Assembly (NCBI GenBank): GCA_963666315.2
Contig: CAXXHG010000010.1
Location: 32,001-96,000, forward strand
Source: Candidatus Binatia bacterium
GTDB taxonomy: Bacteria > Desulfobacterota > Binatia > Bin18
Reading direction: 5' to 3'
Length of the DNA: 64,000 nucleotides
The translations under genes were made by a program, and so were the position numbers. This document shows positions 45,471-58,032 of this stretch, piece after piece (the first letter of the stretch is position 1; every line of letters begins with the position of its first letter). The notes under the pieces were generated by a model. It worked only from the letters and a program-made list of their open reading frames with translations. It was not told where the DNA came from and did not search any database.

Positions 45471-48400
45471 TTACGGTCGAAACTGCAACGCCCGAGGCAC
45501 CAGCCGCGACGGCTGAGACACGACCTTATAAGCAGTTTCCACCCACTCACAAATATACCGTCGCGTATCCCTGGGATCGATCATCTCTTCGATCTGGAAT
45601 TTGTTTAACGGACCGAGCGGCCCGCGTGCGCTCTCGATACGCGCATTGAGTTCTGCGCGCAAGGCGGCCGGATCTGGGGCTTCTGCCAACTGACGTTTAT
45701 AGGCGGCTTCGATGCCGCCTTCGGGTGGGATCCCGCCCACATCCGCGGCAGGCCACGTGACGCGTACGGAGGCCTTTGATCGCGGCGTGGCATAGTTGTT
45801 CCCGGCAACGCCAAAACTGCGCCGCATGAGGACGGTGAAGATGGGCACACCGACCTGAGCGAAGGCGACCATCCACTCCGCACCTTTGCGAATTGTACTG
45901 GCGATTTCGTGCTCCAAGCCGACCGCAGTGAGTGCGCCTCCATTGACATGTTTGCTATCAGAAGCAATCACGCCCAAGGGGTGGCCATTGAATCTCACGA
46001 ATCCGGTGACCTGGTCGGTACCCCACAATGGTCCGATCTCAAAAAAAGAGTCCTTGTCTGCCATCAACCTGATGGCCTGTCGAATATCAAATGTCGTGGT
46101 GCGTTTTCTGGCTATGAGGCCGGCGAGCTGCTCTTCACGCCGGGCTATCGGATCACTTGCCGCAAGCACGGGCGGTACTGCATACACACTGGCGGGCAGA
46201 TAGGACAGAAATTGCCTGGTCATTGCCATCGCTTCTTGTTCGGATTCCGCCAAGTTATCGACCGAGCCATTCGTACAGTGGATGCGCCAGCCGCCGAGTT
46301 CCTCCTTAGTAATGTCATAGCCCATGGCATGCGAGACGAGGGGCGGTCCGGCCACAAAGAGCTGCGCGATATCGCGCACCATAATCGAGAAATGACCCAA
46401 TACGGCCTTGGCCGCGCCTATGCCGACAACACTGCCCAGCAGCAGGTTGACCACGGGTATGGTTGATAGCTGTTCGGTGTACATAGACCTGCCCAGGTGT
46501 CCGGGTAGATACGATCCGCCGCCACCGCTTACCCTAGGCCGTCCAGCTTTGATAGCACCCGAGCTTTCTTTGGCGCTACTCTCGCCCTCTTTTTTCTGTG
46601 CCGGAACCATAGTAGCCACACTGCCACCACCGGACGATCCATCCAGCAACCGTAGCGAGGGCATGCACATTTCCGTGGCGAGCCGATCCAGATAGCCACT
46701 CTTGGCGGCAATCGCACCATCCGCATGACCGCCTCGGGAAGTGAAGTCATCCGCACACACGATGACGCTCCGCCGGTCTATTTTCCCCCATCCACCCACA
46801 CTGTTAGCGGGCGTGAAGCCCGTAATTGCGCCGTCTTCATCGTAGGACGCGAAACCCGCGACACTGCCGACTTCGCGAAAGGATCCTTCGTCCAGCAATA
46901 ACGCAATGCGCTCCCGGCACGTCAGCTTGCCACGCGATCTTTGGCGCACCACGCCGGGATCATCGGAGCCGGGCTCCAAGCGCTGCTTCGCAAAGTTTTG
47001 CAATACACGGACTTCTTCCAGCAGAGATTCCCAGGGCTGTTGGCTGTTTGTGTTTGACGACTGTTGAATGTCGCTCTGCGCAGGCGACACGACTGCCACC
47101 ACTTGTCCTGCAGCAACACTATCCCCGGCCTGCAGCGGCTGCAGTGCCGTTACGATGCCCGCACAGCTTGCCGTCAGCATGGTTTCCATCTTCATTGCGC
47201 TCACAACCAGCAGAATGTCACCTGGTGACACCCGGTCACCCTCATGGACACGTATCTCTACGACACAGCTCTCCACCGGACATGCCACAGCCGCCTGGCC
47301 CGGTGCCACCTCTAACGCTGGCATGTCTGTCGTGGCAGACGGCGAAGACCGCATTGATACTGGAGCCGCGCCGCCCATCTTTCCCATTCTGCCCAGCTGA
47401 GCGGCCTGTTGCTGCAACAAGGCGAGAGCGCTGCCTTCAGCAGCGGAGAAAGAAGCGGTATTGATCTCTGGAGCCTCGGCGAACAAGGACGTTCTGGCAT
47501 CACCGGCCTGAACAGACGGGTGGGATAATATCGCGTGCAGTTGGGGCAGGTTGGTTTGCAGACCACCAATGTGGAACTCAACGAGCGCATGCAGCGTGCG
47601 TTCAAGCGCTGCAGAGTACGTACGGGCCGTACAAATGAGTTTCGCCAGCAATGGATCGAACTGCGGCGGTGGGGCATAACCCAGATACCCACACGCGTCC
47701 ACCCGAATGCCCACTCCTGAGGGCTCCTTATACGCCGTAAGACTCCCAGTACTTATGGCGACGACACGTTCCTGCACGGCAAACCCACGCGGCGCGCCCA
47801 CCGCGTGCTGGTCACCGAGACCCAGAGAGGCCAGCGTCGCACCTGCGGCGATATGGAACTGCGCCTCGACCAGATCAATACCAGTGACCTGCTCAGTGAC
47901 CGTATGCTCAACCTGAATCCGCGGATTGCATTCAATAAAAAAATACTCACTAGTCTCAGGCGAGACTAGAAACTCGACTGTACCTGCGTTCACATACGAA
48001 GCAGCCTGCACTAGCGTGATAGCAGCGTTGAGCATCTTCTGCCGCAAATCGGCTTCCAAACCCGGAGCGGGGGCCACCTCAACCACCTTCTGGTGTCGCA
48101 ATTGCACCGAGCAGTCCCGTTCGTGCAGATGGATCACCTCGCCAGAGGAGTCAGCCAGAATTTGTACTTCGATATGTCTCGGTCGCGCGAGCAGCCTTTC
48201 GATAAAAACGGATCCATCACCGAATGCGGCCTGAGCCTCGCTGCGACAACGCTCAAAGGCCTCGGCCATCTGCTCAGCTCGTTCGACGACGCGCATGCCA
48301 CGCCCTCCGCCTCCCGCCGTTGCCTTGAGCATCACTGGATAGCCAAGATTGTTTGCCAGCTTCTCTGCTTCCAGCGCTGATCCCAAGGGATCAGCGCTCC

Positions 48401-48836
48401 CGGGTACGACGGGAATATCCAACGACTCCGCAAGAGCCCGAGCTCTGACTTTATTTCCGAATAATGACAGCGCCTCGGGCGGCGGACCAATGAACGTCAC
48501 CCCCTCGGCGGCACACAACTCAGCAAACGGGGCGTTCTCGGACAAGAAACCATAACCAGGATGCAGACAGTCACAGCCGCGTACTTTGGCGATCTGAATG
48601 AGCGCTTCCGCGTTCAAATACGCACCAACGGCGTCTTGGGCTGTACCGATCTCATGGCTTTCCGTCATAGAGCGCGTATGCAAGGAGAGCGCGTCGATAG
48701 CAGGATACACCCCTACGGATTCCATGCCCAAGGCGGTTGCAGATTTGGCAATCCGAATGGCGATCTCGCCACGGTTACTTATGAGTACGCGTTTATGGAC
48801 TGTGACGTCTTCCTCTCTCACTTGTTCGTGAGCCAT
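45471..48836 (-). CDS. Single-chain biotin-dependent acyl-CoA carboxylase (BC-BCCP-CT), with an apparent in-frame deletion in the CT domain
   Basis: NRGEIA, HPGYGFLSEN, GGGGRGMR, ERDCSVQ, ECNPRIQVEH, biotin motif AMKME, GKLTCRERI, IDPRDTR. Confidence 0.88.
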   Translation of the reverse strand: MAHEQVREEDVTVHKRVLISNRGEIAIRIAKSATALGMESVGVYPAIDALSLHTRSMTESHEIGTAQDAVGAYLNAEALIQIAKVRGCDCLHPGYGFLSENAPFAELCAAEGVTFIGPPPEALSLFGNKVRARALAESLDIPVVPGSADPLGSALEAEKLANNLGYPVMLKATAGGGGRGMRVVERAEQMAEAFERCRSEAQAAFGDGSVFIERLLARPRHIEVQILADSSGEVIHLHERDCSVQLRHQKVVEVAPAPGLEADLRQKMLNAAITLVQAASYVNAGTVEFLVSPETSEYFFIECNPRIQVEHTVTEQVTGIDLVEAQFHIAAGATLASLGLGDQHAVGAPRGFAVQERVVAISTGSLTAYKEPSGVGIRVDACGYLGYAPPPQFDPLLAKLICTARTYSAALERTLHALVEFHIGGLQTNLPQLHAILSHPSVQAGDARTSLFAEAPEINTASFSAAEGSALALLQQQAAQLGRMGKMGGAAPVSMRSSPSATTDMPALEVAPGQAAVACPVESCVVEIRVHEGDRVSPGDILLVVSAMKMETMLTASCAGIVTALQPLQAGDSVAAGQVVAVVSPAQSDIQQSSNTNSQQPWESLLEEVRVLQNFAKQRLEPGSDDPGVVRQRSRGKLTCRERIALLLDEGSFREVGSVAGFASYDEDGAITGFTPANSVGGWGKIDRRSVIVCADDFTSRGGHADGAIAAKSGYLDRLATEMCMPSLRLLDGSSGGGSVATMVPAQKKEGESSAKESSGAIKAGRPRVSGGGGSYLPGHLGRSMYTEQLSTIPVVNLLLGSVVGIGAAKAVLGHFSIMVRDIAQLFVAGPPLVSHAMGYDITKEELGGWRIHCTNGSVDNLAESEQEAMAMTRQFLSYLPASVYAVPPVLAASDPIARREEQLAGLIARKRTTTFDIRQAIRLMADKDSFFEIGPLWGTDQVTGFVRFNGHPLGVIASDSKHVNGGALTAVGLEHEIASTIRKGAEWMVAFAQVGVPIFTVLMRRSFGVAGNNYATPRSKASVRVTWPAADVGGIPPEGGIEAAYKRQLAEAPDPAALRAELNARIESARGPLGPLNKFQIEEMIDPRDTRRYICEWVETAYKVVSQPSRLVPRALQFRP

Positions 48837-49271
48837 TCTCACAGGTATGGCACGGCAGTTCTGCCTGGAATTCTCCACTAGCCTGCTGTGTATACTGAAA
48901 TTAGCAACTTTATAAGAGTTTTATAACTTCACTAACTTCGCTAACTTCGGTGCTAACGGAGTTCGTGAGCGGACGGATTGTCTCTCCTTGGCCTCACAAT
49001 GCTTCTCACACAAGTGAGACATTAGTTGACGGATCTCCGGTCAGACCAGATTCGCTCACATTCCTGTGCCTGTCGAACCTTGAAGAGAAAGTTTTTCTCA
49101 TCAATAGGGTCATAGTCGATAACGTGCAAGGCAACGATTTTGGGAGAGCAGGTAAGGGGTCAGGTCTTGCAAGCAAGCACAAGGTTTGTAAAGGAGATGG
49201 GGGCAGACTGGTCGTTGCCAACCTAGCGTAGACCTGTTGGCACCCTTCGTCGAATTCGCTACCTTTCGCAA

Positions 49272-49556
49272 GTGAGCTACCAATTTGAGTCGGATCCCAC
49301 AAAGGCGACGACGAATCTGAGAGACCATAAAGTTGCTTTTTAAGAAGCATCGACGGTGTTCGGGGATCCATTGGCCCTGTTAATGGCAGACCCTGACCAT
49401 TCAGCAGAAGAGGAGCGGTATCTGGTGATCTGAATGTCCTCAAGGGGGAGATTGCTTGTTGTGAGCCATGCTGAGCGTCCCCCGCGAACGCGCTTGATTA
49501 GTGCGCGGAAAGCAACTCGACCCGAACGGAGACAATATGAAGAAGGTGAAGCCTAG
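49272..49556 (+). pseudogene. BrnT toxin pseudogene (stops at 49341 and 49431)
   Basis: MSYQFESDPTKATTNLRDHKVAF*EASTVFGDP...DPDHSAEEERYLVI*MS..RLLVVSH..R..RLISARKAT..ERRQYEEG. Confidence 0.85.
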
Positions 49557-49791
49557 ACGAACAAGCGAAACGATACAGGACCAAGACACCATGCGTCCAG
49601 AATATGACTTCTCTGGGGCAGCGCGTGGCGTGACGGCAGCTCGTTATACCAAGGAACAAACATCGTGGTCCTGGATCCAGAGGTTCTTGATGTTTTCCCC
49701 GATTGGTGTGGCAGTCAGTGAAGCTCTGCGAGCTTTGGCCCCCATACTGAGACGCCGACAGTCCTCTCGCAAACGCAAGAAGGTGGCTTAA
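49537..49791 (+). pseudogene. BrnA-like antitoxin with two compensating frameshifts
   Basis: MRPEYDFSG...RY, then the alternative frame gives GTNIVVLDPEVLDVFPD before returning to AVSEALRAL; overlaps brnT. Confidence 0.7.
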
Positions 49792-49815
49792 CAGTTCACT
49801 CCACCCGATCGCGTC

Positions 49816-49922
49816 CCGCTCAAAATGATTGAGGAGTGGGGGCCTGCCCTGGGCAAGCCCTATACCGCACCAATGGGAGAGGGGCTCTTGCAAAGAAGCG
49901 CATGAAGGAGATCAAAAGATGA
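49816..49922 (+). pseudogene. RelE/HigB (Gp49/DUF891-like) toxin remnant with internal deletion
   Basis: MIEEWGPALGKPYTAPMGEGL joined to AKKRMKEIKR*, with an ATGA overlap into the HTH gene. Confidence 0.65.
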
Positions 49923-50221
49923 CACGACCAACACTGGCCGGCTTTAAGAAAAAGGCTCTGAAAAACCCAGAAGTCAGAGAAGAATATGAGTCACTCACCC
50001 CTGCCTATGACCTCCGGAGAAAGCTCATCGCCCTCCGTAAAGAAGCAGGCCTCACCCAAGAAGAGCTGGCGAAGCGACTTCATACGAAAAATAGTAATAT
50101 TTCTCGCCTAGAAAACGTGAATTCCTCGATCTCACCGACGCTAACAACAATTGAGGCGTATGCCGAAGCGGTAGGCTATCGAGTAGAGATAAATTTTCGG
50201 CCCGCCTCCCCTTCAACCTGA
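49919..50221 (+). CDS. XRE-family HTH antitoxin (HigA-like)
   Basis: KALKNPEVREEYESL...LIALRKEAGLTQEELAKRLHTKNSNISRLE...PTLTTIEAYAEAVG. Confidence 0.9.
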   Translation: MTRPTLAGFKKKALKNPEVREEYESLTPAYDLRRKLIALRKEAGLTQEELAKRLHTKNSNISRLENVNSSISPTLTTIEAYAEAVGYRVEINFRPASPST

Positions 50222-50259
50222 CCTCCGCAGAAAGGTGATTCCACTCGACAATGGCTGCG

Positions 50260-50417
50260 GTCTGAATCCGGCTCTGGAACCGATCCGACCTCTCCGATGC
50301 CGGCAGGGTTGCCATCATGCATGGAGTCGGCTATCCCGTACCCTGCCGCTCTCACTTCCGCTGTATGGATATTTGGCACACGGCGGAGCCGATCACGGTC
50401 GGAGATCAGAGCTAGAC
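50260..50417. repeat. Long imperfect inverted repeat, degenerate attC-like site
   Basis: Pairings GCTCTG/CAGAGC, TCCGACC/GGTCGGA, CTCCG/CGGAG and CGGCAGGGT/ACCCTGCCG; ends GTCTGAAT...GCTAGAC resemble the R'' and R' boxes. Confidence 0.45.
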
Positions 50418-50486
50418 GCCAAGCCTATGGTGAAGGGAACGTACGAAACGGTTGGCTGCTTCAACTGATCTGCTAGGAGATAGATT

Positions 50487-50859
50487 GTGGGAAACCATGG
50501 CGTCAAAAAGGTCATTCAGTTTTGTTATGGCCATCGTCTCCTTGACTATGATGGTAAATGCCGGAATCTACATGGCCGTAACGCTCAGTTGGAGATCGAG
50601 ATCGACTCCGGGGGACTGGATCGACTCGAGATGGTCATCGATTTTGGGGAGATCAAGGACATAGCCAAGGGGTGGGTCGATGACCATCTTGATCATAAGA
50701 TGTTACTGCACCGTGACGACCCCATTGCTAAAGTGTTGCCCAACCGCCGAAAATATCACCAAGCTAATCTTCCATACATTGTCCAAGTTGGGACTACACG
50801 TCTCCCGTGTGAGCCTGGGGGAAACACCCAGCATCTGCGCGACCCATAGCGAGGATTAA
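50487..50859 (+). pseudogene. queD: QueD (6-carboxytetrahydropterin synthase), internal deletion plus frameshift
   Basis: FCYGHRL..Y.GKCRNLHGRN (HGH changed to HGR), MVIDFG, LDHK; the second frame gives PTAENI...GETP. Confidence 0.85.
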
Positions 50860-50863
50860 TCCT

Positions 50864-51511
50864 GTGACCAGAGTTGCCGTTTTAGCCAGTGGTGGACTCG
50901 ACAGCAGTGTCTTACTGTACGATCTGGCCAGCACATACGATGTCGCCCCGCTCTATATCGAGAAAGGCTTGGCCTGGGAAACCGAAGAGCGTCGGGCGCT
51001 GAAGCGCTTCGTAGATAGGCTCGATCATCCACGAGTCAGCGCACCCGTGACCTTGCCACTCCTGGTCGATGGGCTGTACGGCAAACACTGGAGTGTCACG
51101 GGTGAGGGCGTACCGGCAGCGGATGAGCCTGACGAAAATGTCTTTCTGCCGGCTCGCAACATTTTGCTCTTTACGGCTGCTGCTATTTGGTGCCTAGCCA
51201 ATGGGGTGCATCGCATCGCAGTGGGCTCGCTGGAGGGCAATCCCTTTCCGGATGCGACGGATGAATTTTTTGCCGATCTGGCGCGGTTGCTGAGTACCGC
51301 GCTGAGTCATGAAATCACCATCGTGGCCCCATACCGGCATTTGACTAAGAAAGCCGTCATCAAGCAATTCCAGCATTTGCCCTTGGCGCTGACCCTGACG
51401 TGCAACGCCCCGCATAGCGGTCTGCATTGCGGCGGGTGCAACAAATGTTACGAGCGGCAGCAGGCATTCATCAAGGCCAAGGTTCAGGACCAGACGCCCT
51501 ATGCGCAATAA
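50864..51511 (+). CDS. queC: QueC-family 7-cyano-7-deazaguanine synthase (PP-loop ATPase)
   Basis: SGGLDS, FLPARN, GNPFPDAT, C-terminal zinc site C...HCGGCNKC.ER. Confidence 0.85.
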   Translation: MTRVAVLASGGLDSSVLLYDLASTYDVAPLYIEKGLAWETEERRALKRFVDRLDHPRVSAPVTLPLLVDGLYGKHWSVTGEGVPAADEPDENVFLPARNILLFTAAAIWCLANGVHRIAVGSLEGNPFPDATDEFFADLARLLSTALSHEITIVAPYRHLTKKAVIKQFQHLPLALTLTCNAPHSGLHCGGCNKCYERQQAFIKAKVQDQTPYAQ

Positions 51512-51562
51512 GACGAGACCGTCGGTAAGCCCCCAACTTTGCTAGCAGGCAAGGAAGAGAAG

Positions 51563-54088
51563 ATGAGTACCCCACTTCGCCTCCACCCCCAAGAACAGAT
51601 TCAGCAGTATCTCGATCCTGACTCGTTACCGGCACAGCCGCCACCCCTCATATTCTTGTCGATGCCGTTCGGGCTGCCGTATATGCCGTCGCTGGGTCTG
51701 TCGTTATTGAAGGCCGGTTTGGCGACGCGGGGCATTGCCGCCGATATCCGCTACCTAGGGATGACATTTGCCCAAACCATCGGCTACCCGTTTTATCAGC
51801 GCTTGGCGCATGGCGGCTCGAGCGATCTGGGAGATTGGATTTTTTACCGGGCACTCTACGGACCGCCATCGGCTTCGCAAATCGAGCGGTTTTGGCAACT
51901 GCAATTTGCAGACGGGTCGCCGCGCGGCATGGCAACCAGCTTTGAAGCCTTGCAGGAGCGCGTGGCCCAGGCGCAAGTGCGCGCCTGCGAGTTTATCGAC
52001 CACTGCCTGCACGAGATCGATTGGGCGCAGTATCGCATGGTCGGATTCACCACCATGTTCCAACAGAACCTAGCCTCACTGGCCCTGGCCGGGCGCATCA
52101 AAGAGATGCATCCTGACGTCCAGATCTTGTTCGGCGGACCGAATGCCGAGGGCGACATGGGTGCCGGTCTCATGGCATGCTTTCCGTTCATTGACTTTGC
52201 CTTTTCGGGAGAATCGGACGACCGCTTCCCGGCCTTTGTGGAAGCGATCTTAGCCGCTGAGCCCATCCCCTTAACGGGTGTGATCTCGCGCCATACACCC
52301 GGCGGCGCCGTACGCCTGCCCACCAATTGGGGCGGCCCCATTCATGACATGGATGCCCTGCCGTATCCAAACTTCGATGATTTCTACGCTCAGTTCAACG
52401 CGGCTTTCCCCGAGTTGCAACCGCACCTGAACTACGAAACCGCACGCGGCTGCTGGTGGGGAGCGAAGAGTCACTGCACCTTTTGTGGTTTGAACGGCTT
52501 GACGATGGCCTTTCGCAGCAAATCGCCGGACCGGGCCATTGACGAGATCAGTTTTCTGCACCAGCGATATATGGACCCGAACCGGGTCGTGCTCATGCAG
52601 CCGGCCGATCAGATCTTGGATTTACGGTATTTTGACTCGATGATTCCGCGCCTGCCCACCGCAGCGCCCGGCATTCCGACCTTCTTCGAGATCAAGGCCA
52701 ACTTGAGCCGCGACCAGGTCGCAGCCCTGGCCACAGCGCATGTGCACATTGTGCAACCGGGCATCGAGAGTCTCAGTAGCCAGGTGCTCAAATTAATGCG
52801 CAAAGGTTGTACCTTGTTGCAGAATATCCAGCTCTTAAAATGGTGCGCGGAGTTCGGCTTGCACGCCATCTGGAACTTGCTGTATGGATTTCCCGGAGAG
52901 TGTGAGGCAGATTATCAGCAGACCTCCGAGGCGGTGCCGCTGATCGCTCATCTGCAGCCGCCGAAGAAGTTCTTTGCCATTGAGCTCGATCGCTTTAGCC
53001 CCTATTTCACATCGCCCCAAGAGCTAGGCGTGAAAAATATCCGCCCGCCAGAAATTTTTTCGATCCTCTACCCGTTCGATGCCCAGCATCAATACGATAT
53101 TTGCTATACGTTCGATTTTGACTATATCGAATCCCGCGAGGCCACCACCTATCTGGGCTCCTCCCTGGACCGGGTTGCGCGATTATGGATGCGGACGCGG
53201 CAACGGGGCGCCTTGGTGGGGTTTTACGATGCAGAACGCCTGTTGATCTGGGACAGCCGTATCGGCGCCGTTAATGCCTGGGTCGAAATCCATGGGCCGT
53301 ATCGCGAGGCGTTGCTGCAAGCTGACCGTATTCTGGTAGAGAACCGGTTGAGAGATGTCTTTGCCGATGCGATCGGTGCAGCAGACGCGCAGACGACGCT
53401 GGATGATTTTTTGGCGTGCATGCAGCACCGTGGATTCGTGTTGCGTGAGGATGGACGGCTGCTGTCCTTAGTTGTGCTCAACGCCGTCTCGGATCACCTC
53501 CCCGCTGTATCCGAGGATCAAGTCGTCCACATCGCGCCTCGCCTCAACGACATGCCGGACGCTGGCATCGTCGCATTTGGTGGTGCGGCCATCGACGACG
53601 TGCTTGCCCGTCCACCGGATGACAGCGACCGGTATCAAGTCGTCCTGACCGGGCAGATCCTCCGCATATCGCGCATATCGCGCATGTCGACGGATGATAC
53701 TCAAGGCATTGACGGCGTGTGTGTGGTGGAATCGTTTTGGGGCGTCTCAGCATTTCGTTTGAGCGGTACGGTGCAGATGGCTCAGGGTAAGCCTACACGG
53801 CTTGCTCTGACTGCGGAGCGGGTCAGCGGCTTTGAGGCCGGACCATGGACCCTGGAGTTCGAGTCCGGCGATCACGGCTCGATCGACGCCGCCGGGGCCC
53901 GCCTCAGCGGCGATGCCCACTACCATGATGCGGTCAATCCATCTCTGCCGCTGCGTATGGCAGTCGAGGCTCTCACCGCGCCGGACGGATCGCGCCAGAT
54001 GCGCTTCAGCGCCACCGGAGAGGGCTTTTACTACGCCAGTTTTCTGGCCGCCGGTGAGAGTGTCGGCGGGGCTGAATCCGTTTTTTAA
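51563..54088 (+). CDS. RiPP-maturation-type radical SAM enzyme (TIGR03975-like; B12-binding-like N-domain) with a ~200-aa C-terminal extension
   Basis: SMPF..PSLGLSLLKA, GFTTMFQQNLASLALA, GGPNAEG, ETARGCWWGAKSHCTFCGLN (CX7CX2C), QPGIESLS, WNLLYGFPGE, DRFSPYF. Confidence 0.88.
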   Translation: MSTPLRLHPQEQIQQYLDPDSLPAQPPPLIFLSMPFGLPYMPSLGLSLLKAGLATRGIAADIRYLGMTFAQTIGYPFYQRLAHGGSSDLGDWIFYRALYGPPSASQIERFWQLQFADGSPRGMATSFEALQERVAQAQVRACEFIDHCLHEIDWAQYRMVGFTTMFQQNLASLALAGRIKEMHPDVQILFGGPNAEGDMGAGLMACFPFIDFAFSGESDDRFPAFVEAILAAEPIPLTGVISRHTPGGAVRLPTNWGGPIHDMDALPYPNFDDFYAQFNAAFPELQPHLNYETARGCWWGAKSHCTFCGLNGLTMAFRSKSPDRAIDEISFLHQRYMDPNRVVLMQPADQILDLRYFDSMIPRLPTAAPGIPTFFEIKANLSRDQVAALATAHVHIVQPGIESLSSQVLKLMRKGCTLLQNIQLLKWCAEFGLHAIWNLLYGFPGECEADYQQTSEAVPLIAHLQPPKKFFAIELDRFSPYFTSPQELGVKNIRPPEIFSILYPFDAQHQYDICYTFDFDYIESREATTYLGSSLDRVARLWMRTRQRGALVGFYDAERLLIWDSRIGAVNAWVEIHGPYREALLQADRILVENRLRDVFADAIGAADAQTTLDDFLACMQHRGFVLREDGRLLSLVVLNAVSDHLPAVSEDQVVHIAPRLNDMPDAGIVAFGGAAIDDVLARPPDDSDRYQVVLTGQILRISRISRMSTDDTQGIDGVCVVESFWGVSAFRLSGTVQMAQGKPTRLALTAERVSGFEAGPWTLEFESGDHGSIDAAGARLSGDAHYHDAVNPSLPLRMAVEALTAPDGSRQMRFSATGEGFYYASFLAAGESVGGAESVF

Positions 54089-54180
54089 GACACCCGATCG
54101 GTACCTTTGGCGGCTTCGACGTACAGGCTTTCGCTTTGCCGCCGCGCCAACACTCGTCCCTCATCATCGTTTAACATCGC

Positions 54181-55497
54181 TTAACGTGCGTCAAGTTTTG
54201 CTACATAGTCCCAGAATGACGGATTGCCAGGAGAAACGCGAGCCAAGGTTAGCGGCCATTCGTCATTTTCATCAGAGCCATCTCCGTCGCCTGGGGGTGA
54301 GTCGACGTGAAGTGGCCGTTGATCCGAAAACTCAAAGCCCTCGGGTAACGAATGATCTTGCCGATTGCCCAGTGACCCAACGGGCTGAGGCAGGTGCAAT
54401 ATCGACTGAAAGATGCGATTCCATACTGCGCATGAGTGGTCAATAGCATACCAGTCGCGAACCATATGCGAGGCATGACTGACGAGCCGTTGGTATAGGT
54501 CAGGACCCGCCCAGAGCCGCATCAAACAATCAGCCGCGGCTGACGCATCGCCGATGGGAAACAGCATACCGGTTTCTTCGTGGCGCAGCGCCCGTTCCAG
54601 CCCCGACCCGTAGTATCTTGACGACACAACCGCCACATTCCTGGCCATGGCTTCATACACGACAAAAGGGCCGGTATCCGTCCACGAGGTCAGCAGCAGC
54701 ACATCACGGCCCGGGTGCATATGCGTCCAAGTGTCTTCCGGTGCCAACCGGCCCAGCAACCGTGCCGAGCCATTGTGTATCCAGGGCTGTATACGCCGCC
54801 GGAATTCGGCTTCGTCCGGCCCCAATCCTATGACCGTGAGTTCGAAGGGTACGGATCGCGCGTCCAGTGCATCGAGAATCAGGGGAATGTCATGCACGCG
54901 TTTGTCCGGCCAGTCGATCCGCCCAACGTAAAAGATGCTTAGGCGGTCGGCGCGATGTCTGGGTGGTGCAACCTGACGGGCAGAAACGCCGTAAGGTCCA
55001 TAACAGACGCGCTCGGGCGCCATCCCGCCCAAGGTGATGACAAGCTGCCTGGTGAGCTCATTGGTGCAGATCACTGCGTCGAGAACGTGAGCCCAATCCG
55101 CAATGTCTTTCAACAATCCCTCATCAATCATCTGGGCGGACATGGCAATCCTCGGCATGGATAGACCCGCTGACCGACACTCGCCCACCACCACCACTGC
55201 ATCCGTGACATTCAGAGTAATCACGAGGTCGGGCTGGATCGATTGGATCGCCCGGCGCAGTGCGTCGCGCCGGCCCTCAGGGGTGCCCGTCGTGCAGGAA
55301 ATCCGCACCCATTCCTGGTGCGGATGCTGCTCCAGGTAGCGTTCCGGACGGTGAAATTGCCTCCCCTGCAGTAATCCGATGCTGACCCGCCAGCCGCCAT
55401 TGCGCAGTCCCGGCTCGATGTAGTCAAGCCAAGTGGCGGCGCCACCGAGCGTATGAGCAGTCCGGTTGAGAAACAGGATGTGTGGTTGCATACGCAC
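54181..55497 (-). CDS. GT4 (GT-B) glycosyltransferase
   Basis: YVGRI..PDKR, GLGPDE, LLTSWTDTGPFVVYEAMA, LFPIGD. Confidence 0.85.
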   Translation of the reverse strand: MRMQPHILFLNRTAHTLGGAATWLDYIEPGLRNGGWRVSIGLLQGRQFHRPERYLEQHPHQEWVRISCTTGTPEGRRDALRRAIQSIQPDLVITLNVTDAVVVVGECRSAGLSMPRIAMSAQMIDEGLLKDIADWAHVLDAVICTNELTRQLVITLGGMAPERVCYGPYGVSARQVAPPRHRADRLSIFYVGRIDWPDKRVHDIPLILDALDARSVPFELTVIGLGPDEAEFRRRIQPWIHNGSARLLGRLAPEDTWTHMHPGRDVLLLTSWTDTGPFVVYEAMARNVAVVSSRYYGSGLERALRHEETGMLFPIGDASAAADCLMRLWAGPDLYQRLVSHASHMVRDWYAIDHSCAVWNRIFQSILHLPQPVGSLGNRQDHSLPEGFEFSDQRPLHVDSPPGDGDGSDENDEWPLTLARVSPGNPSFWDYVAKLDAR

Positions 55498-55530
55498 GGC
55501 TACCGAGCAAAGCGGGTGAGAGACGCGTAC

Positions 55531-56058
55531 TCAGTGCAAGGCAGGACCGTGCACCCAACCGGCCAATACAATCCGGGTACCACCCGTGAGGGGGGAAACC
55601 GTATGGATTTCGTGGGCGGGAAAGAAGACCGCATCCCCTTGCTGCATGGTAATCGTATCTATTTCGGCCACGGTTAACACACCACCCGAAAAATCGTCTG
55701 ACGGAACCAGTTGCATGATACAGCTCAACTTACTTGAGTCCGGTAGGCGGTAGTCGCGATCCACGTGCGGCCGTGTCCAGTATCCATCTACGTATCTCAG
55801 GACTCGAAAGGTTTCGGCAATACCCGTCAGTGACAACTGCCAATATTCCTGATTCAACTCGGCAGCGGTTGTCGCCATCTTTGCGTAGACAAATTCCGCT
55901 TCCGCCGGCGTCACTTCACAGGTCTCAACCTGTACCGCGCCCGTTTCGCCATAACGGGAGTGGTCGAAATGCCGATACCCTTTATGTGCCGCAATCGCCA
56001 CCAGCCGCTCACATTCACTCTGAGATAACAGCCCCGTGCGGCACACATGGGAGGGCAT
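55531..56058 (-). CDS. 2OG-Fe(II) oxygenase (prolyl-4-hydroxylase/PKHD-like)
   Basis: LRY...HVD...KLSCIMQL...FSGG.L...GDAVFFPAHEIHTVSPLTGGTR (HxD...H...R). Confidence 0.88.
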   Translation of the reverse strand: MPSHVCRTGLLSQSECERLVAIAAHKGYRHFDHSRYGETGAVQVETCEVTPAEAEFVYAKMATTAAELNQEYWQLSLTGIAETFRVLRYVDGYWTRPHVDRDYRLPDSSKLSCIMQLVPSDDFSGGVLTVAEIDTITMQQGDAVFFPAHEIHTVSPLTGGTRIVLAGWVHGPALH

Positions 56059-56405
56059 TCTCCGAGAGAAGAGTGGGATCGGGTACAGAATTGACTGTGA
56101 TACGTCCGTCGTGCTGACACCTTTTCCGCAATAGATAGGGTTCGGCAACGAAGTTATGGCCCAGCCATGATGGTGTCAAGGCTTTTGTAAGGAAGCCGGG
56201 ATCGACCACCTTACGGTTGGAGCCAAGCTGGTTCTACGCCATAAATGAGACACGGACACAAGGCGGACTCGGGCCGATAATGAAATCCTCGGCGGTCAAA
56301 ATCTCCCGCGACTGAGCCTATAGGCCATTTCGACATGCACACGATAATGATCAATACTCGTGAGCCGAATCGAAGGTCGATAGTAACTTACCAGGAGGCG
56401 ATGAT

Positions 56406-57755
56406 ATGGATGCCAACGCAGTGAGGCAGCACATTGAAAAGGAGCCGATCAATCAATGGGCACAAAGGCTGGGCGTAACTGCCACCACAGGCCATGATCA
56501 GCTCATCGGACAGACTCTACGGATTCATGGCAAGGGAGCTTTCGAGGTCAACCGTATTGAGGGCAGTGAAATCTACCTCAATGGTAAAGAGAGACCCATA
56601 CCCATCAGTGTGTTAACCGATGAGAACGGGGAATATTCGGCTTGGAAGGCAGACGGGAGTCGATTTGCCGCAAGAGTCAATGTCGTGACCGGTAACAGCG
56701 GTGCCCGCTCGCAAGAAGATCGACAGCACAGCCGCAAGCCGAGACAGTCCACGTCATCCAAGCGACAGCTGGAGCAGCTAGAGCAGCTGAACAAGGCGGG
56801 GGCGGAGATTCCGGCGACCGATGTCAAAGAAATCAACCACATGTTCTTAGTGCGGAATCCAGATGCGCTACACCGTACCGATCCATTGAACGTTGTCTTT
56901 GGCTTTGAGATGGCCAAAATCACCTATGTGGACCCGATTGGAAAAGTCCCAAAAGCCCTTGAACAGCCAGGGATTGGATTCAAAGAGGTTCGCGCCTTCG
57001 ATTCCAAGAACACGGACACGCAGGCATTCATCGCGGTAACGCCGGATGAAAAGGGCATTGTGATTGCGTTCCACGGTACGACGCCGGGCAAGGACATCTT
57101 GACCGATCTCAGCGTATCCTTTGACGATTTCGCGCTTGGTGGACAGGCGCATGAGGGCTTCCAAGACTACGTTCGTGGCGTGAAGGAGCTCATATACGAA
57201 CACCTTGAGAAGGTTATGCGGCGATACCCTGACGCCAAGATTTTTGGCGCGGGCCATAGCCTGGGTGCCGCCGCTATTGTTAACTTCATTGGTACAGCGT
57301 TGGGGGAAGGTGTCATCGAAGCCGCCCAGGTAGGCAGGGTGGTGCTGGCAGGTTCTCCAAGAGGGTTCGATAGGGAAGCCGCCCGGCTCTTCAACAAACT
57401 CATCCGAGCAAGAGTCGACCGATGCGTGAACGCCTCAGACATTGTGACCAAGCTGCCGGCGCTTCTTGCCTCAGTGGTTGCCAGTCTCTTGGCCTTGTTT
57501 CAGTCGGACGCTCATCCCGGCTTCTACAAGCATATCGGTACCTTTGCTCCGAACGTCTTCTTCGACGACAAGAGGAGAGAGACGTCGGAGCGGTCATGGG
57601 TCTATCGGATTTGGGAGCGGATACGCAGCCTGAAGGGCCAAGCGACGGACCATTTCTTGGATAACTACCTGAAGTGCGGTCACCGCTGGTTGGAGGAAAA
57701 GGGTCAGCTGCCGGATGAGAACGTGAGTCAACGCTTGGCCTCTGGAGCCTATTGA
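56406..57755 (+). CDS. Class 3 lipase-family hydrolase with N-terminal extension
   Basis: IVIAFHGT, HEGF, GHSLG nucleophile elbow, GSPR, DIVTKLP, late DH; AGGAGG SD. Confidence 0.85.
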   Translation: MDANAVRQHIEKEPINQWAQRLGVTATTGHDQLIGQTLRIHGKGAFEVNRIEGSEIYLNGKERPIPISVLTDENGEYSAWKADGSRFAARVNVVTGNSGARSQEDRQHSRKPRQSTSSKRQLEQLEQLNKAGAEIPATDVKEINHMFLVRNPDALHRTDPLNVVFGFEMAKITYVDPIGKVPKALEQPGIGFKEVRAFDSKNTDTQAFIAVTPDEKGIVIAFHGTTPGKDILTDLSVSFDDFALGGQAHEGFQDYVRGVKELIYEHLEKVMRRYPDAKIFGAGHSLGAAAIVNFIGTALGEGVIEAAQVGRVVLAGSPRGFDREAARLFNKLIRARVDRCVNASDIVTKLPALLASVVASLLALFQSDAHPGFYKHIGTFAPNVFFDDKRRETSERSWVYRIWERIRSLKGQATDHFLDNYLKCGHRWLEEKGQLPDENVSQRLASGAY

Positions 57756-57883
57756 GTAGCGCAAGATTCGTCCTCCGACCGAGTTTACTTTCCCGTACGC
57801 ACGCGCGCTCCTTAATCACGCCTGCTCCAAGTGCCCGGCCGCTTTTGAGTGTGGCGGCGCATTCTGCGACCTGCGCCATTTCG

Positions 57884-57897
57884 TCATACTGGTATGA
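57884..57897. promoter_or_regulatory. Palindrome TCATAC-TG-GTATGA upstream of frc, candidate repressor operator
   Basis: Perfect 6+6 inverted repeat in the intergenic region. Confidence 0.4.
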
Positions 57898-58032
57898 GTC
57901 GACGGCTATCCGATCGGGGATTTGCGAGCCGAACAGCTGTCCCCCCTTCTTGCATCAGGGATCAGACGATATACAAATAACTGCGCAATGGACCCCTCGT
58001 AGGGAGCCCCTTGTGTGGCCAGGAGGAAAACC

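Follow-up and report, generated by a model that had tools for sequence, protein, structure and literature searches.

Within a 64,000-nucleotide stretch of Candidatus Binatia DNA (contig CAXXHG010000010.1, positions 32,001 to 96,000; hereafter the window, whose coordinates we use throughout), a QueD-like gene, a QueC-like gene and a TIGR03975-family, B12-type radical S-adenosylmethionine (SAM) gene converge at 50487-56148 with genes for a GT4 glycosyltransferase and a 2-oxoglutarate (2OG) oxygenase. We tentatively propose, with a probability of roughly 0.4, that the five together form a single, horizontally mobile biosynthetic block, and that what it makes is a tailored small molecule built on the QueD product and not on preQ0 (7-cyano-7-deazaguanine). 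We favor this reading because we observed no precursor peptide, paralogy of the QueC-like protein, pterin enzymes encoded beside its relatives, and conservation of the block, from which we infer the chemistry set out below. The product of the block would probably be an undescribed modified pterin-type (or pterin-peptide) compound.

Family calls were made from an open reading frame (ORF) listing and from Pfam and NCBIfam profile scans with curated cut-offs. These agreed with a first-pass annotation of the window, which had described five genes, the first three of them co-oriented and facing the oxygenase-glycosyltransferase pair. The short gaps that it gave were also correct: the true-frame stop of queD is followed after 4 bp by the GTG of queC, and the queC stop is followed after 51 bp by the ATG of the radical SAM gene. 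The block contains the following features.

50487-50849 (open frame; true-frame extent 50487..50859), plus strand: QueD-like gene of the 6-pyruvoyl-tetrahydropterin synthase (PTPS) family (PF01242, 68.1 bits, profile positions 3-77 of 121)
50864-51511, plus strand: QueC-like PP-loop ATPase (PF06508, 94.9 bits; TIGR00364, 67.1 bits versus a cut-off of 150.3)
51539-54088 (849-aa frame; 51563-54088, 841 aa, from the conserved ATG), plus strand: B12-type radical SAM enzyme (TIGR03975, 570.9 bits)
53192..53506, plus strand: predicted winged-helix domain of the radical SAM enzyme, like a RiPP recognition element (RRE), residues 552-656 (domain model pLDDT 92.6)
53633..54055, plus strand: predicted clade-specific C-terminal eight-stranded beta-barrel of the radical SAM enzyme, residues ~699-839 (structure matches Z 8.3-9.8)
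54089..54180, no strand: spacer with the remnant of a methyltransferase 3' end, resembling the 3' end of one methyltransferase gene of contig L116
54181-55497, minus strand: GT4 glycosyltransferase (PF00534, 57.9 bits)
55531-56148, minus strand: prolyl-4-hydroxylase-like 2OG-Fe(II) oxygenase (PF13640, 46.6 bits)

A metagenome scan with the QueC-like protein as the query yielded 46 loci, and three metagenome contigs, L114, L115, and L116, are considered here; L114 was grouped with G009, a relative from the same genus (97-100% identical to the window). L116 (12.7 kb) has all five genes in the same convergent layout, with amino acid identities to the window of 83% for QueD, 74% for QueC, 61% for GT4, and 70% for the 2OG oxygenase. 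Its radical SAM protein is 67% identical over 844 residues, C-terminal extension included. Two SAM methyltransferase genes are present between the arms in L116, and a gene for a ferritin-like protein (PF12902) follows the oxygenase. L115 contains QueD and QueC, and its contig ends after the first part of the radical SAM gene. Thus, the combination, whose failure to recur the first-pass annotation would have taken as a sign of chance juxtaposition, does recur, completely in L116 and partially in L115.

The genes that flank the block in L116 have no close homologue in the genome that holds the window (G000, 92% complete), the best being a peroxiredoxin at 35%, and the block is therefore in a different genomic background there. 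Given the methyltransferase relic in the 92-bp spacer of the window, we regard the window copy as a reduced derivative. Two of the 15 radical SAM proteins that bear the C-terminal extension are on contigs (7629 and 5402061 bp) matching those of close QueC-like relatives; these two pairs represent probable further co-occurrence through presumed linkage. We conclude that the five genes move as a set, in a rare mobile block carried by marine bacteria. The two methyltransferases of L116 are divergent, and neither they nor the PF12902 protein (the three being encoded in L116:6197-7747 and L116:9671-10693) match any NCBIfam model at cut-off.

Judged by its sequence, the QueC-like protein is a paralogue and not a housekeeping QueC. 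The L116 copy, at 68.4 bits, falls below the TIGR00364 cut-off as does the window copy, and canonical QueCs from the same class score 255-258 bits with the Pfam QueC model versus 94.5 for the window protein. The SGGxDS loop and the zinc site C-x8-C-x2-C-x2-C are invariant in 20 of 20 aligned subfamily members. In an alignment with three canonical QueCs, the ATP loop and the zinc cysteines are kept, as is VPxRN in the form LPxRN; YGQxHExxE is replaced by xGLxWExxE, YPDC by FPDA, and C-Y-D-P by C-N-A-P, with the Tyr after the first zinc cysteine becoming Asn, Met or Ile in the subfamily. In addition, one canonical loop segment is swapped for a segment with an invariant H-W-S. The residues used as the motif reference are those found to be essential in QueC (YxQxHxxE, YPDC, and the Tyr that directly follows zinc cysteine 1), as given in the main text of PMC13329287.

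In an IQ-TREE tree of 108 rows, which is the result of a quick search only (a careful search is unfinished), a long branch with a support of 100 splits the subfamily from the three canonical QueCs. The window, L115, L116, and 22 close relatives form one clade (25 rows, support 95), and this clade nests among Chloroflexota sequences linked to QueD, FolE, and a short-chain dehydrogenase/reductase (SDR). The subfamily search gave 2324 hits from 2776 candidates, and a relative is encoded at 563 of 583 pattern matches in species-representative genomes. At 50% identity the subfamily makes up 265 clusters with E<=1e-30; the corresponding figure at 1e-10, 3516 clusters, is taken to include canonical QueC. 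In a Dehalococcoidia sample, 5 of 101 genomes carry a member. These QueC-like relatives bear the source name '7-cyano-7-deazaguanine synthase'.

Among nine carrier genomes, three also have a canonical QueC (221-252 bits), and four (G061, G475, G500, and G520) have no credible QueE, the best candidates being 21-23 bits in 341-344-aa frames, or nothing. In another carrier genome, G468, a second QueC hit, of 97 bits, is next to a QueE-like gene. By cut-off, motifs, and tree, the window gene did not group with housekeeping QueC, which the first-pass annotation had named as the outcome that would speak for a coincidental neighborhood. Its suggestion that QueC could be repurposed is compatible with this; the adenylating or amide-forming role that it added is one that the protein may have, by conjecture.

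We surveyed the genes at most 3 kb away from 80 QueC-like loci. A QueD-like gene was present at 39 of these, one class-I SAM methyltransferase family at 52, a pteridine-reductase-like SDR at 28, and FolE at 14; none of these four was found at 17. The usual gene order in Dehalococcoidia is SDR, QueD, QueC-like, FolE. No QueE was found among the recurrent neighbor clusters of the 80 loci. Because the partners are QueD, SDR, and FolE, and never an adjoining QueE, a pterin substrate, 6-carboxy-tetrahydropterin (CPH4), appears likelier than a deazapurine. The window-type radical SAM, GT4, and 2OG oxygenase were seen at 0 of the 80 loci, indicating that the five-gene block is a specialised offshoot. 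One 968-aa protein, P0176, has a QueC-like domain (residues 10-214) joined to TPR repeats; it may be genuinely fused or may reflect an artefact of gene calling, and we set it aside as an uninformative, apparent QueC fusion.

As the first-pass annotation had stated, neither FolE nor QueE is present within the cluster (Pfam and NCBIfam scans did not find QueE in window 49071-57937 or in L116), yet both are encoded elsewhere in G000: FolE at C10:29715-30251 and QueE at C43:78843-79475 (TIGR04508, 356 bits). One could then imagine that the QueD/QueC pair merely supplies preQ0 in the ordinary way, giving a QueC-lacking lineage a working QueC fed by the core QueE, and that the other three genes are unrelated neighbors. 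QueE (TIGR04508-type) is above cut-off in 26 of 27 same-genus genomes, and within the family 33 of 36 were matched at E<=1e-15. Pfam QueC is found within the genus only in G000, G009, and G012, and so the lineage retains QueE without an evident QueC. The genus also has FolE, PTPS homologues, and Tgt; the window gene is the sole QueC-family gene of G000, and its PP-loop, R-N, and zinc-cysteine motifs are retained. However, the substrate-pocket motifs are altered, including the Tyr after the first zinc cysteine, and subfamily members are found both in genomes that have a canonical QueC and in genomes that lack QueE. Furthermore, a profile search of G000, in which Tgt is present, found no QueF above cut-off that could use the preQ0, and the five genes are kept together in L116. 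We consider such a preQ0 supply very improbable.

TIGR03975 enzymes are linked to the maturation of peptides that are ribosomally synthesized and then modified post-translationally (RiPPs), and the family is classically tied to the NHLP and Nif11 leader families (proteusin/polytheonamide type). When stop-to-stop frames of at least 20 aa from window 48880-58000 were compared with L115 and L116, no conserved small ORF was found, all matches being inside the five genes. A comparison of intergenic short peptides returned only the methyltransferase relic. In G000, the Nif11-leader model gave no match and the NHLP model none above cut-off, with sub-threshold matches only, inside frames of 249 and 384 aa. 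As a control, the NHLP model detected true precursors in two of five genomes with TIGR03975 relatives. The small-ORF comparison and the leader searches thus agree with the first-pass annotation, which had found no precursor peptide. The sub-threshold NHLP-leader matches are paired and located at G000:C35:58030-58425 (384-aa frame) and G000:C40:22500-22892 (249-aa frame), and the two frames may represent nitrile-hydratase-related proteins instead of RiPP precursors.

The radical SAM protein matches TIGR03975 over residues 39-646, covering profile positions 3-606 of 606, at about twice the cut-off of 281.85 bits. Its C305-x7-C313-x2-C316 motif is unchanged in all 13 of the clade members, and ATG 51563 is the conserved start. 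The enzyme is of the CX7CX2C TIGR03975 type, as the first-pass annotation, which set it apart from QueE, had stated. The cobalamin-binding family PF02310 scored 25.4 bits versus a cut-off of 32.1. Because the full-length structure model is poor, we limited its interpretation to the two C-terminal domains.

The first of these, residues 552-656, was modelled alone with 17 sequences. Its best PDB match by Foldseek was TbiB1 with a leader peptide (probability 0.99, E 0.053, 80 columns), VIA-align reached Z 7.5, aligning 78 of 84 residues, and the RiPP enzymes CteB (5why) and ThcOx (5lq4) were within the first 16 rows of the matches. General winged-helix proteins scored just behind TbiB1 and the Foldseek E-values were above 0.001; the scores for an RRE-like fold are suggestive, not significant. 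This domain is common to TIGR03975 relatives that are 31-43% identical.

The second domain is in the ~200 residues after residue 646, for which there was no family match. In 400 genomes we found 14 radical SAM relatives from the same phylum, 31-40% identical, all of which end at about residue 650 without the C-terminal extension. In a collection of 5.8 billion proteins, the beta-barrel extension is present in only 15, nearly all of 833-872 aa. The predicted barrel matches a Diels-Alderase (Z 9.8), avidin and dirigent barrels (8.3-9.8), and allene-oxide-cyclase (7.8), and also pyocyanin demethylase; we limit our claim here to the fold class that the model suggests. The ESM Atlas gave no usable match for this domain, and a PDB sequence search gave none for the radical SAM protein. 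The likeness of the modelled barrel to small-molecule-binding barrels (Z 8.3-9.8) would be a weaker support for a small-molecule product than the evidence described above.

A PDB search with the GT4 sequence yielded no more than generic GT4 matches and a weak match to 9v0l at E 6.4e-4 and 21.7 bits. For the 2OG oxygenase, the PDB sequence search gave no match, and HxD...H...R is readable in its sequence. The first-pass annotation had envisioned a methylated, hydroxylated, and glycosylated deazapurine or peptide. As to the substrate, the QueD, SDR, and FolE partners make a pterin likelier than a deazapurine.

In the pathway that we propose, housekeeping FolE provides dihydroneopterin triphosphate, and the QueD-like enzyme (C-x3-HGH type) would convert this to CPH4. 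The QueC-like PP-loop enzyme would then adenylate the CPH4 carboxylate, generating an amide or a nitrile or allowing coupling to an amine. The B12-radical SAM enzyme would C-methylate the intermediate, with the appended beta-barrel helping to keep the small substrate in place, after which the 2OG oxygenase would hydroxylate and the GT4 enzyme would glycosylate it. The L116 version is the fuller one, with two more SAM methyltransferases and the ferritin-like protein; the window version, with its queD disrupted, has lost the methyltransferases. It is possible, though we think it doubtful, that the widespread QueC paralogue acts on CPH4 and not on 7-carboxy-7-deazaguanine, forming a QueE-independent pterin branch. 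By the same conjecture, a captured RiPP-type radical SAM enzyme would methylate a small molecule held in the newly fused barrel, leading to a pterin carboxamide or nitrile of a new class that is C-methylated, hydroxylated, and glycosylated.

Several points weigh against a small molecule built on the QueD product. The radical SAM protein belongs firmly to a family whose NCBIfam name refers to RiPP maturation, and it keeps the RRE-like domain, whose best structural matches are, as far as the domain model indicates, leader-peptide-binding domains. The full-length model of this enzyme is poor (pLDDT 52), although a beta-beta-beta-alpha-alpha-alpha unit (557-650) and eight strands in succession (702-826) can be seen in it. 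Outer-membrane barrels match the C-terminal barrel equally well, and the match is middling. Prolyl-hydroxylase-type 2OG enzymes often act on peptides. To our knowledge, no enzyme other than QueE uses 6-carboxy-tetrahydropterin, and the QueE encoded elsewhere in G000 leaves room for a deazaguanine substrate.

The RRE-like domain (pLDDT 92.6, with leader-bound TbiB1 as the top match and CteB and ThcOx close by) and the family identity of the radical SAM protein (570.9 bits) keep alive a different idea, in which the block modifies a peptide or protein. The QueC-like enzyme would ligate a pterin or deazapurine carboxylate to an amine of the peptide or protein, and the radical SAM enzyme, the oxygenase, and the GT4 enzyme would act on the peptide. 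One related TIGR03975 gene pair (G082) is ~20 kb away from a true NHLP precursor, and the main texts of PMC13329287 and 10.64898/2026.04.15.718813 describe amide-forming QueC homologues, the bond being to the N-terminus of a protein (QatC, Cap9) or to lysine (roseomycin). Nevertheless, the window, L115, and L116 share no conserved small ORF beyond the five genes, and the 92%-complete G000 has neither an NHLP above cut-off nor a Nif11. The block contains no protease or exporter in Pfam and NCBIfam scans of the window and L116, and it moves between unrelated genomes without a substrate gene. Given in addition that the Foldseek E-values for the RRE match exceed 0.001, we think it rather unlikely that the block works on a peptide or protein.

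The state of queD bears on whether the window copy works at all. Relative to L114, L115, and L116, the window queD has a 38-bp deletion and a frameshift at ~50739, ahead of the conserved C-terminal part, and reads HGR where these three contigs read HGH. On TIGR03367 the window copy scores 62.8 bits versus a cut-off of 89.25. Intact relatives are 136 aa long with C-x3-HGH, a motif that we take to be the mark of the QueD type, and score 80.1 and 85.6 bits, just below the cut-off. As first annotated, then, queD is broken and queC is intact in the window copy. However, queD is intact in G009/L114, L115, and L116, and we also compared the region with four public metagenome runs (X1, X3, X4, and X5). 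In X3, X4, and X5, which come from three studies, 37 extra letters at 50739 give the intact queD form at depths of 5.5 to 58.8; the deletion was seen only in X1 (depth 2.9), a run that contains 98% of the sampled words and may represent the source sample. With queD intact in three of four runs and in all relatives, the argument of the first-pass annotation that a broken queD indicates a QueC acting independently is unsupported.

Compared with the common allele, 50109-50739 has 41 differing positions and the following 4 kb only 44. The breakage of queD is a local, recent event in a low-depth strain and is uninformative about the normal working of the system. Elsewhere in G000, two tandem PTPS domains (124.8 and 112.2 bits) are present in one 293-aa frame (C24:118572-119402), and another PTPS homologue is on C31; either could replace the QueD-type activity of the broken island copy. 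The window block is probably either crippled or reliant on these other PTPS homologues. Upstream of queD, ~40 nt at window 50346-50392 are common to many unrelated contigs in all four runs, with the depth spiking to 58-171 and loose ends on either side; this resembles a piece of some widely conserved gene that was left behind in the island.

Taken further, decay could account for the whole arrangement, with the genes being remnants on their way to being lost from a patchwork that has no joint function here. The disruption of queD with its accumulated changes would fit this, as would the methyltransferase remnant in the spacer, the other gene fragments upstream, and the absence of the island from 26 of 27 other same-genus genomes. 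Yet only queD among the five is broken, the other four being intact and retaining their catalytic motifs, the intact-queD allele is found in three of four runs at depths up to 58.8, near-identical sequence occurs in runs from 14 studies, and the block has been conserved, at 61-83% identity, against a different genomic background. Among the runs listed for the stretch there was no RNA data set. We regard decay as improbable, and a working biosynthetic block, in its intact form, remains the reading that we favor.

The block is within an accessory island, as the first-pass annotation had claimed and as a DNA search of 27 other same-genus genomes confirmed. The island and the further genes on it are as follows.

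49071..57937, no strand: accessory island, 8.9 kb, with a DNA match in G009 only
49829..50221, plus strand: Xre-type helix-turn-helix (HTH) gene (PF01381, 41.9 bits)
56406..57755, plus strand: class-3 lipase (family scan; present in G009, absent from L116)

Window 48820-57937 was matched at the DNA level in G009 alone among the 27 genomes. In G024:C32, ~1.2 kb joins the left flank up to window 49070 with frc from 57938 on. Among 61 relatives, the high-identity radical SAM gene is found only in G000 and G009, and the QueC-like gene likewise. G009 shares the order radical SAM, GT4, 2OG oxygenase, lipase. Neither a tRNA nor flanking direct repeats were found at the island borders. Two other candidates for block carriers were rejected: G046 has only a 41-43% radical SAM homologue and an unrelated QueC, and G032 only a fragmentary radical SAM homologue and an unrelated QueC.

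The Xre-type HTH gene is absent from L116 and L115, and only its last 37 residues are present in L114/G009; it is island cargo of this strain, outside the conserved block. The class-3 lipase is cargo that the island has in this species alone. At window 49528-49790, immediately upstream of the HTH gene, the start of a short antitoxin-like frame continues in another frame, which suggests a toxin-antitoxin remnant with a frameshift. Most of window 48819-50108 is missing from G009. Window 45471-48878 encodes a 1135-aa protein in which biotin carboxylase, biotin carrier, and carboxyltransferase are fused; this fusion is present in most same-genus genomes, far from the thiolase and frc genes that flank the window copy.

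If the proposed reading is true, the QueD product has a fate besides queuosine and deazapurines, by way of a QueC paralogue, and a RiPP-family radical SAM enzyme has shifted to, or joined, small-molecule chemistry. There would also be systematic mis-annotation across Chloroflexota, Binatota, Planctomycetota, Actinomycetota, and other groups, in hundreds of genomes. The main text of PMC13329287 places 91% of QueC-family sequences in one 'canonical' cluster, mentions no pterin-linked group, and has 0 matches for pterin, Chloroflex, or methyltransferase. In the literature searched, which covers the main texts of that paper and of the preprint 10.64898/2026.04.15.718813, there was no account of a QueE-independent QueD/QueC-like system or of this block. 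According to its main text, the mining in the preprint needed QueE in the interval searched, and QueE-anchored mining of this kind would miss the block.

Five known systems resemble the block in part. Amide-forming QueC homologues (QatC, Cap9, and the roseomycin enzyme) also have a repurposed QueC fold that keeps the ATP-binding loop, but the window protein scores 25.4 bits on the QatC model versus a cut-off of 280, and scans of the block gave no QatA, QatB, QatD, TGT-like partner or ATP-grasp enzyme. A Qat or type IV CBASS (cyclic-oligonucleotide-based antiphage signaling system) defence system was considered and rejected, PADLOC giving generic QueC, 2OG, and HTH hits only and QatC being below cut-off. 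Pteridine glycosides made through tetrahydrobiopterin glucosyltransferase (PDB 9v0l) offer a parallel in that a GT4-type gene is beside a PTPS-family gene, with a weak match to 9v0l. However, generic GT4 enzymes (PimA, BshA-like) match at least as well, and the block has no sepiapterin-reductase-type SDR.

The 7-deazapurine clusters (huimycin, dapiramicin, and toyocamycin; for huimycin, the main text of 10.64898/2026.04.15.718813) share with the block a QueC/QueD-type core, a glycosyltransferase, and methyltransferases; in contrast to the block, which has neither QueE nor a canonical QueC, they have QueE, FolE, and a canonical QueC. The preQ0/queuosine pathway (FolE, QueD, QueE, and QueC) has in common with it the adjacent QueD, C-x3-HGH when intact, and PP-loop QueC, 4 bp apart. 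The block differs in having no QueE nearby and a QueC at 67 bits versus a cut-off of 150, with altered pocket motifs and a subfamily that occurs together with canonical QueC and in genomes without a credible QueE. Finally, the window enzyme resembles the TIGR03975 RiPP C-methyltransferases in its full-length match, its CX7CX2C motif, and its predicted RRE-like domain; unlike them, it has no precursor gene beside it, adds a C-terminal beta-barrel region of ~200 aa, and neighbors QueD- and QueC-like genes.

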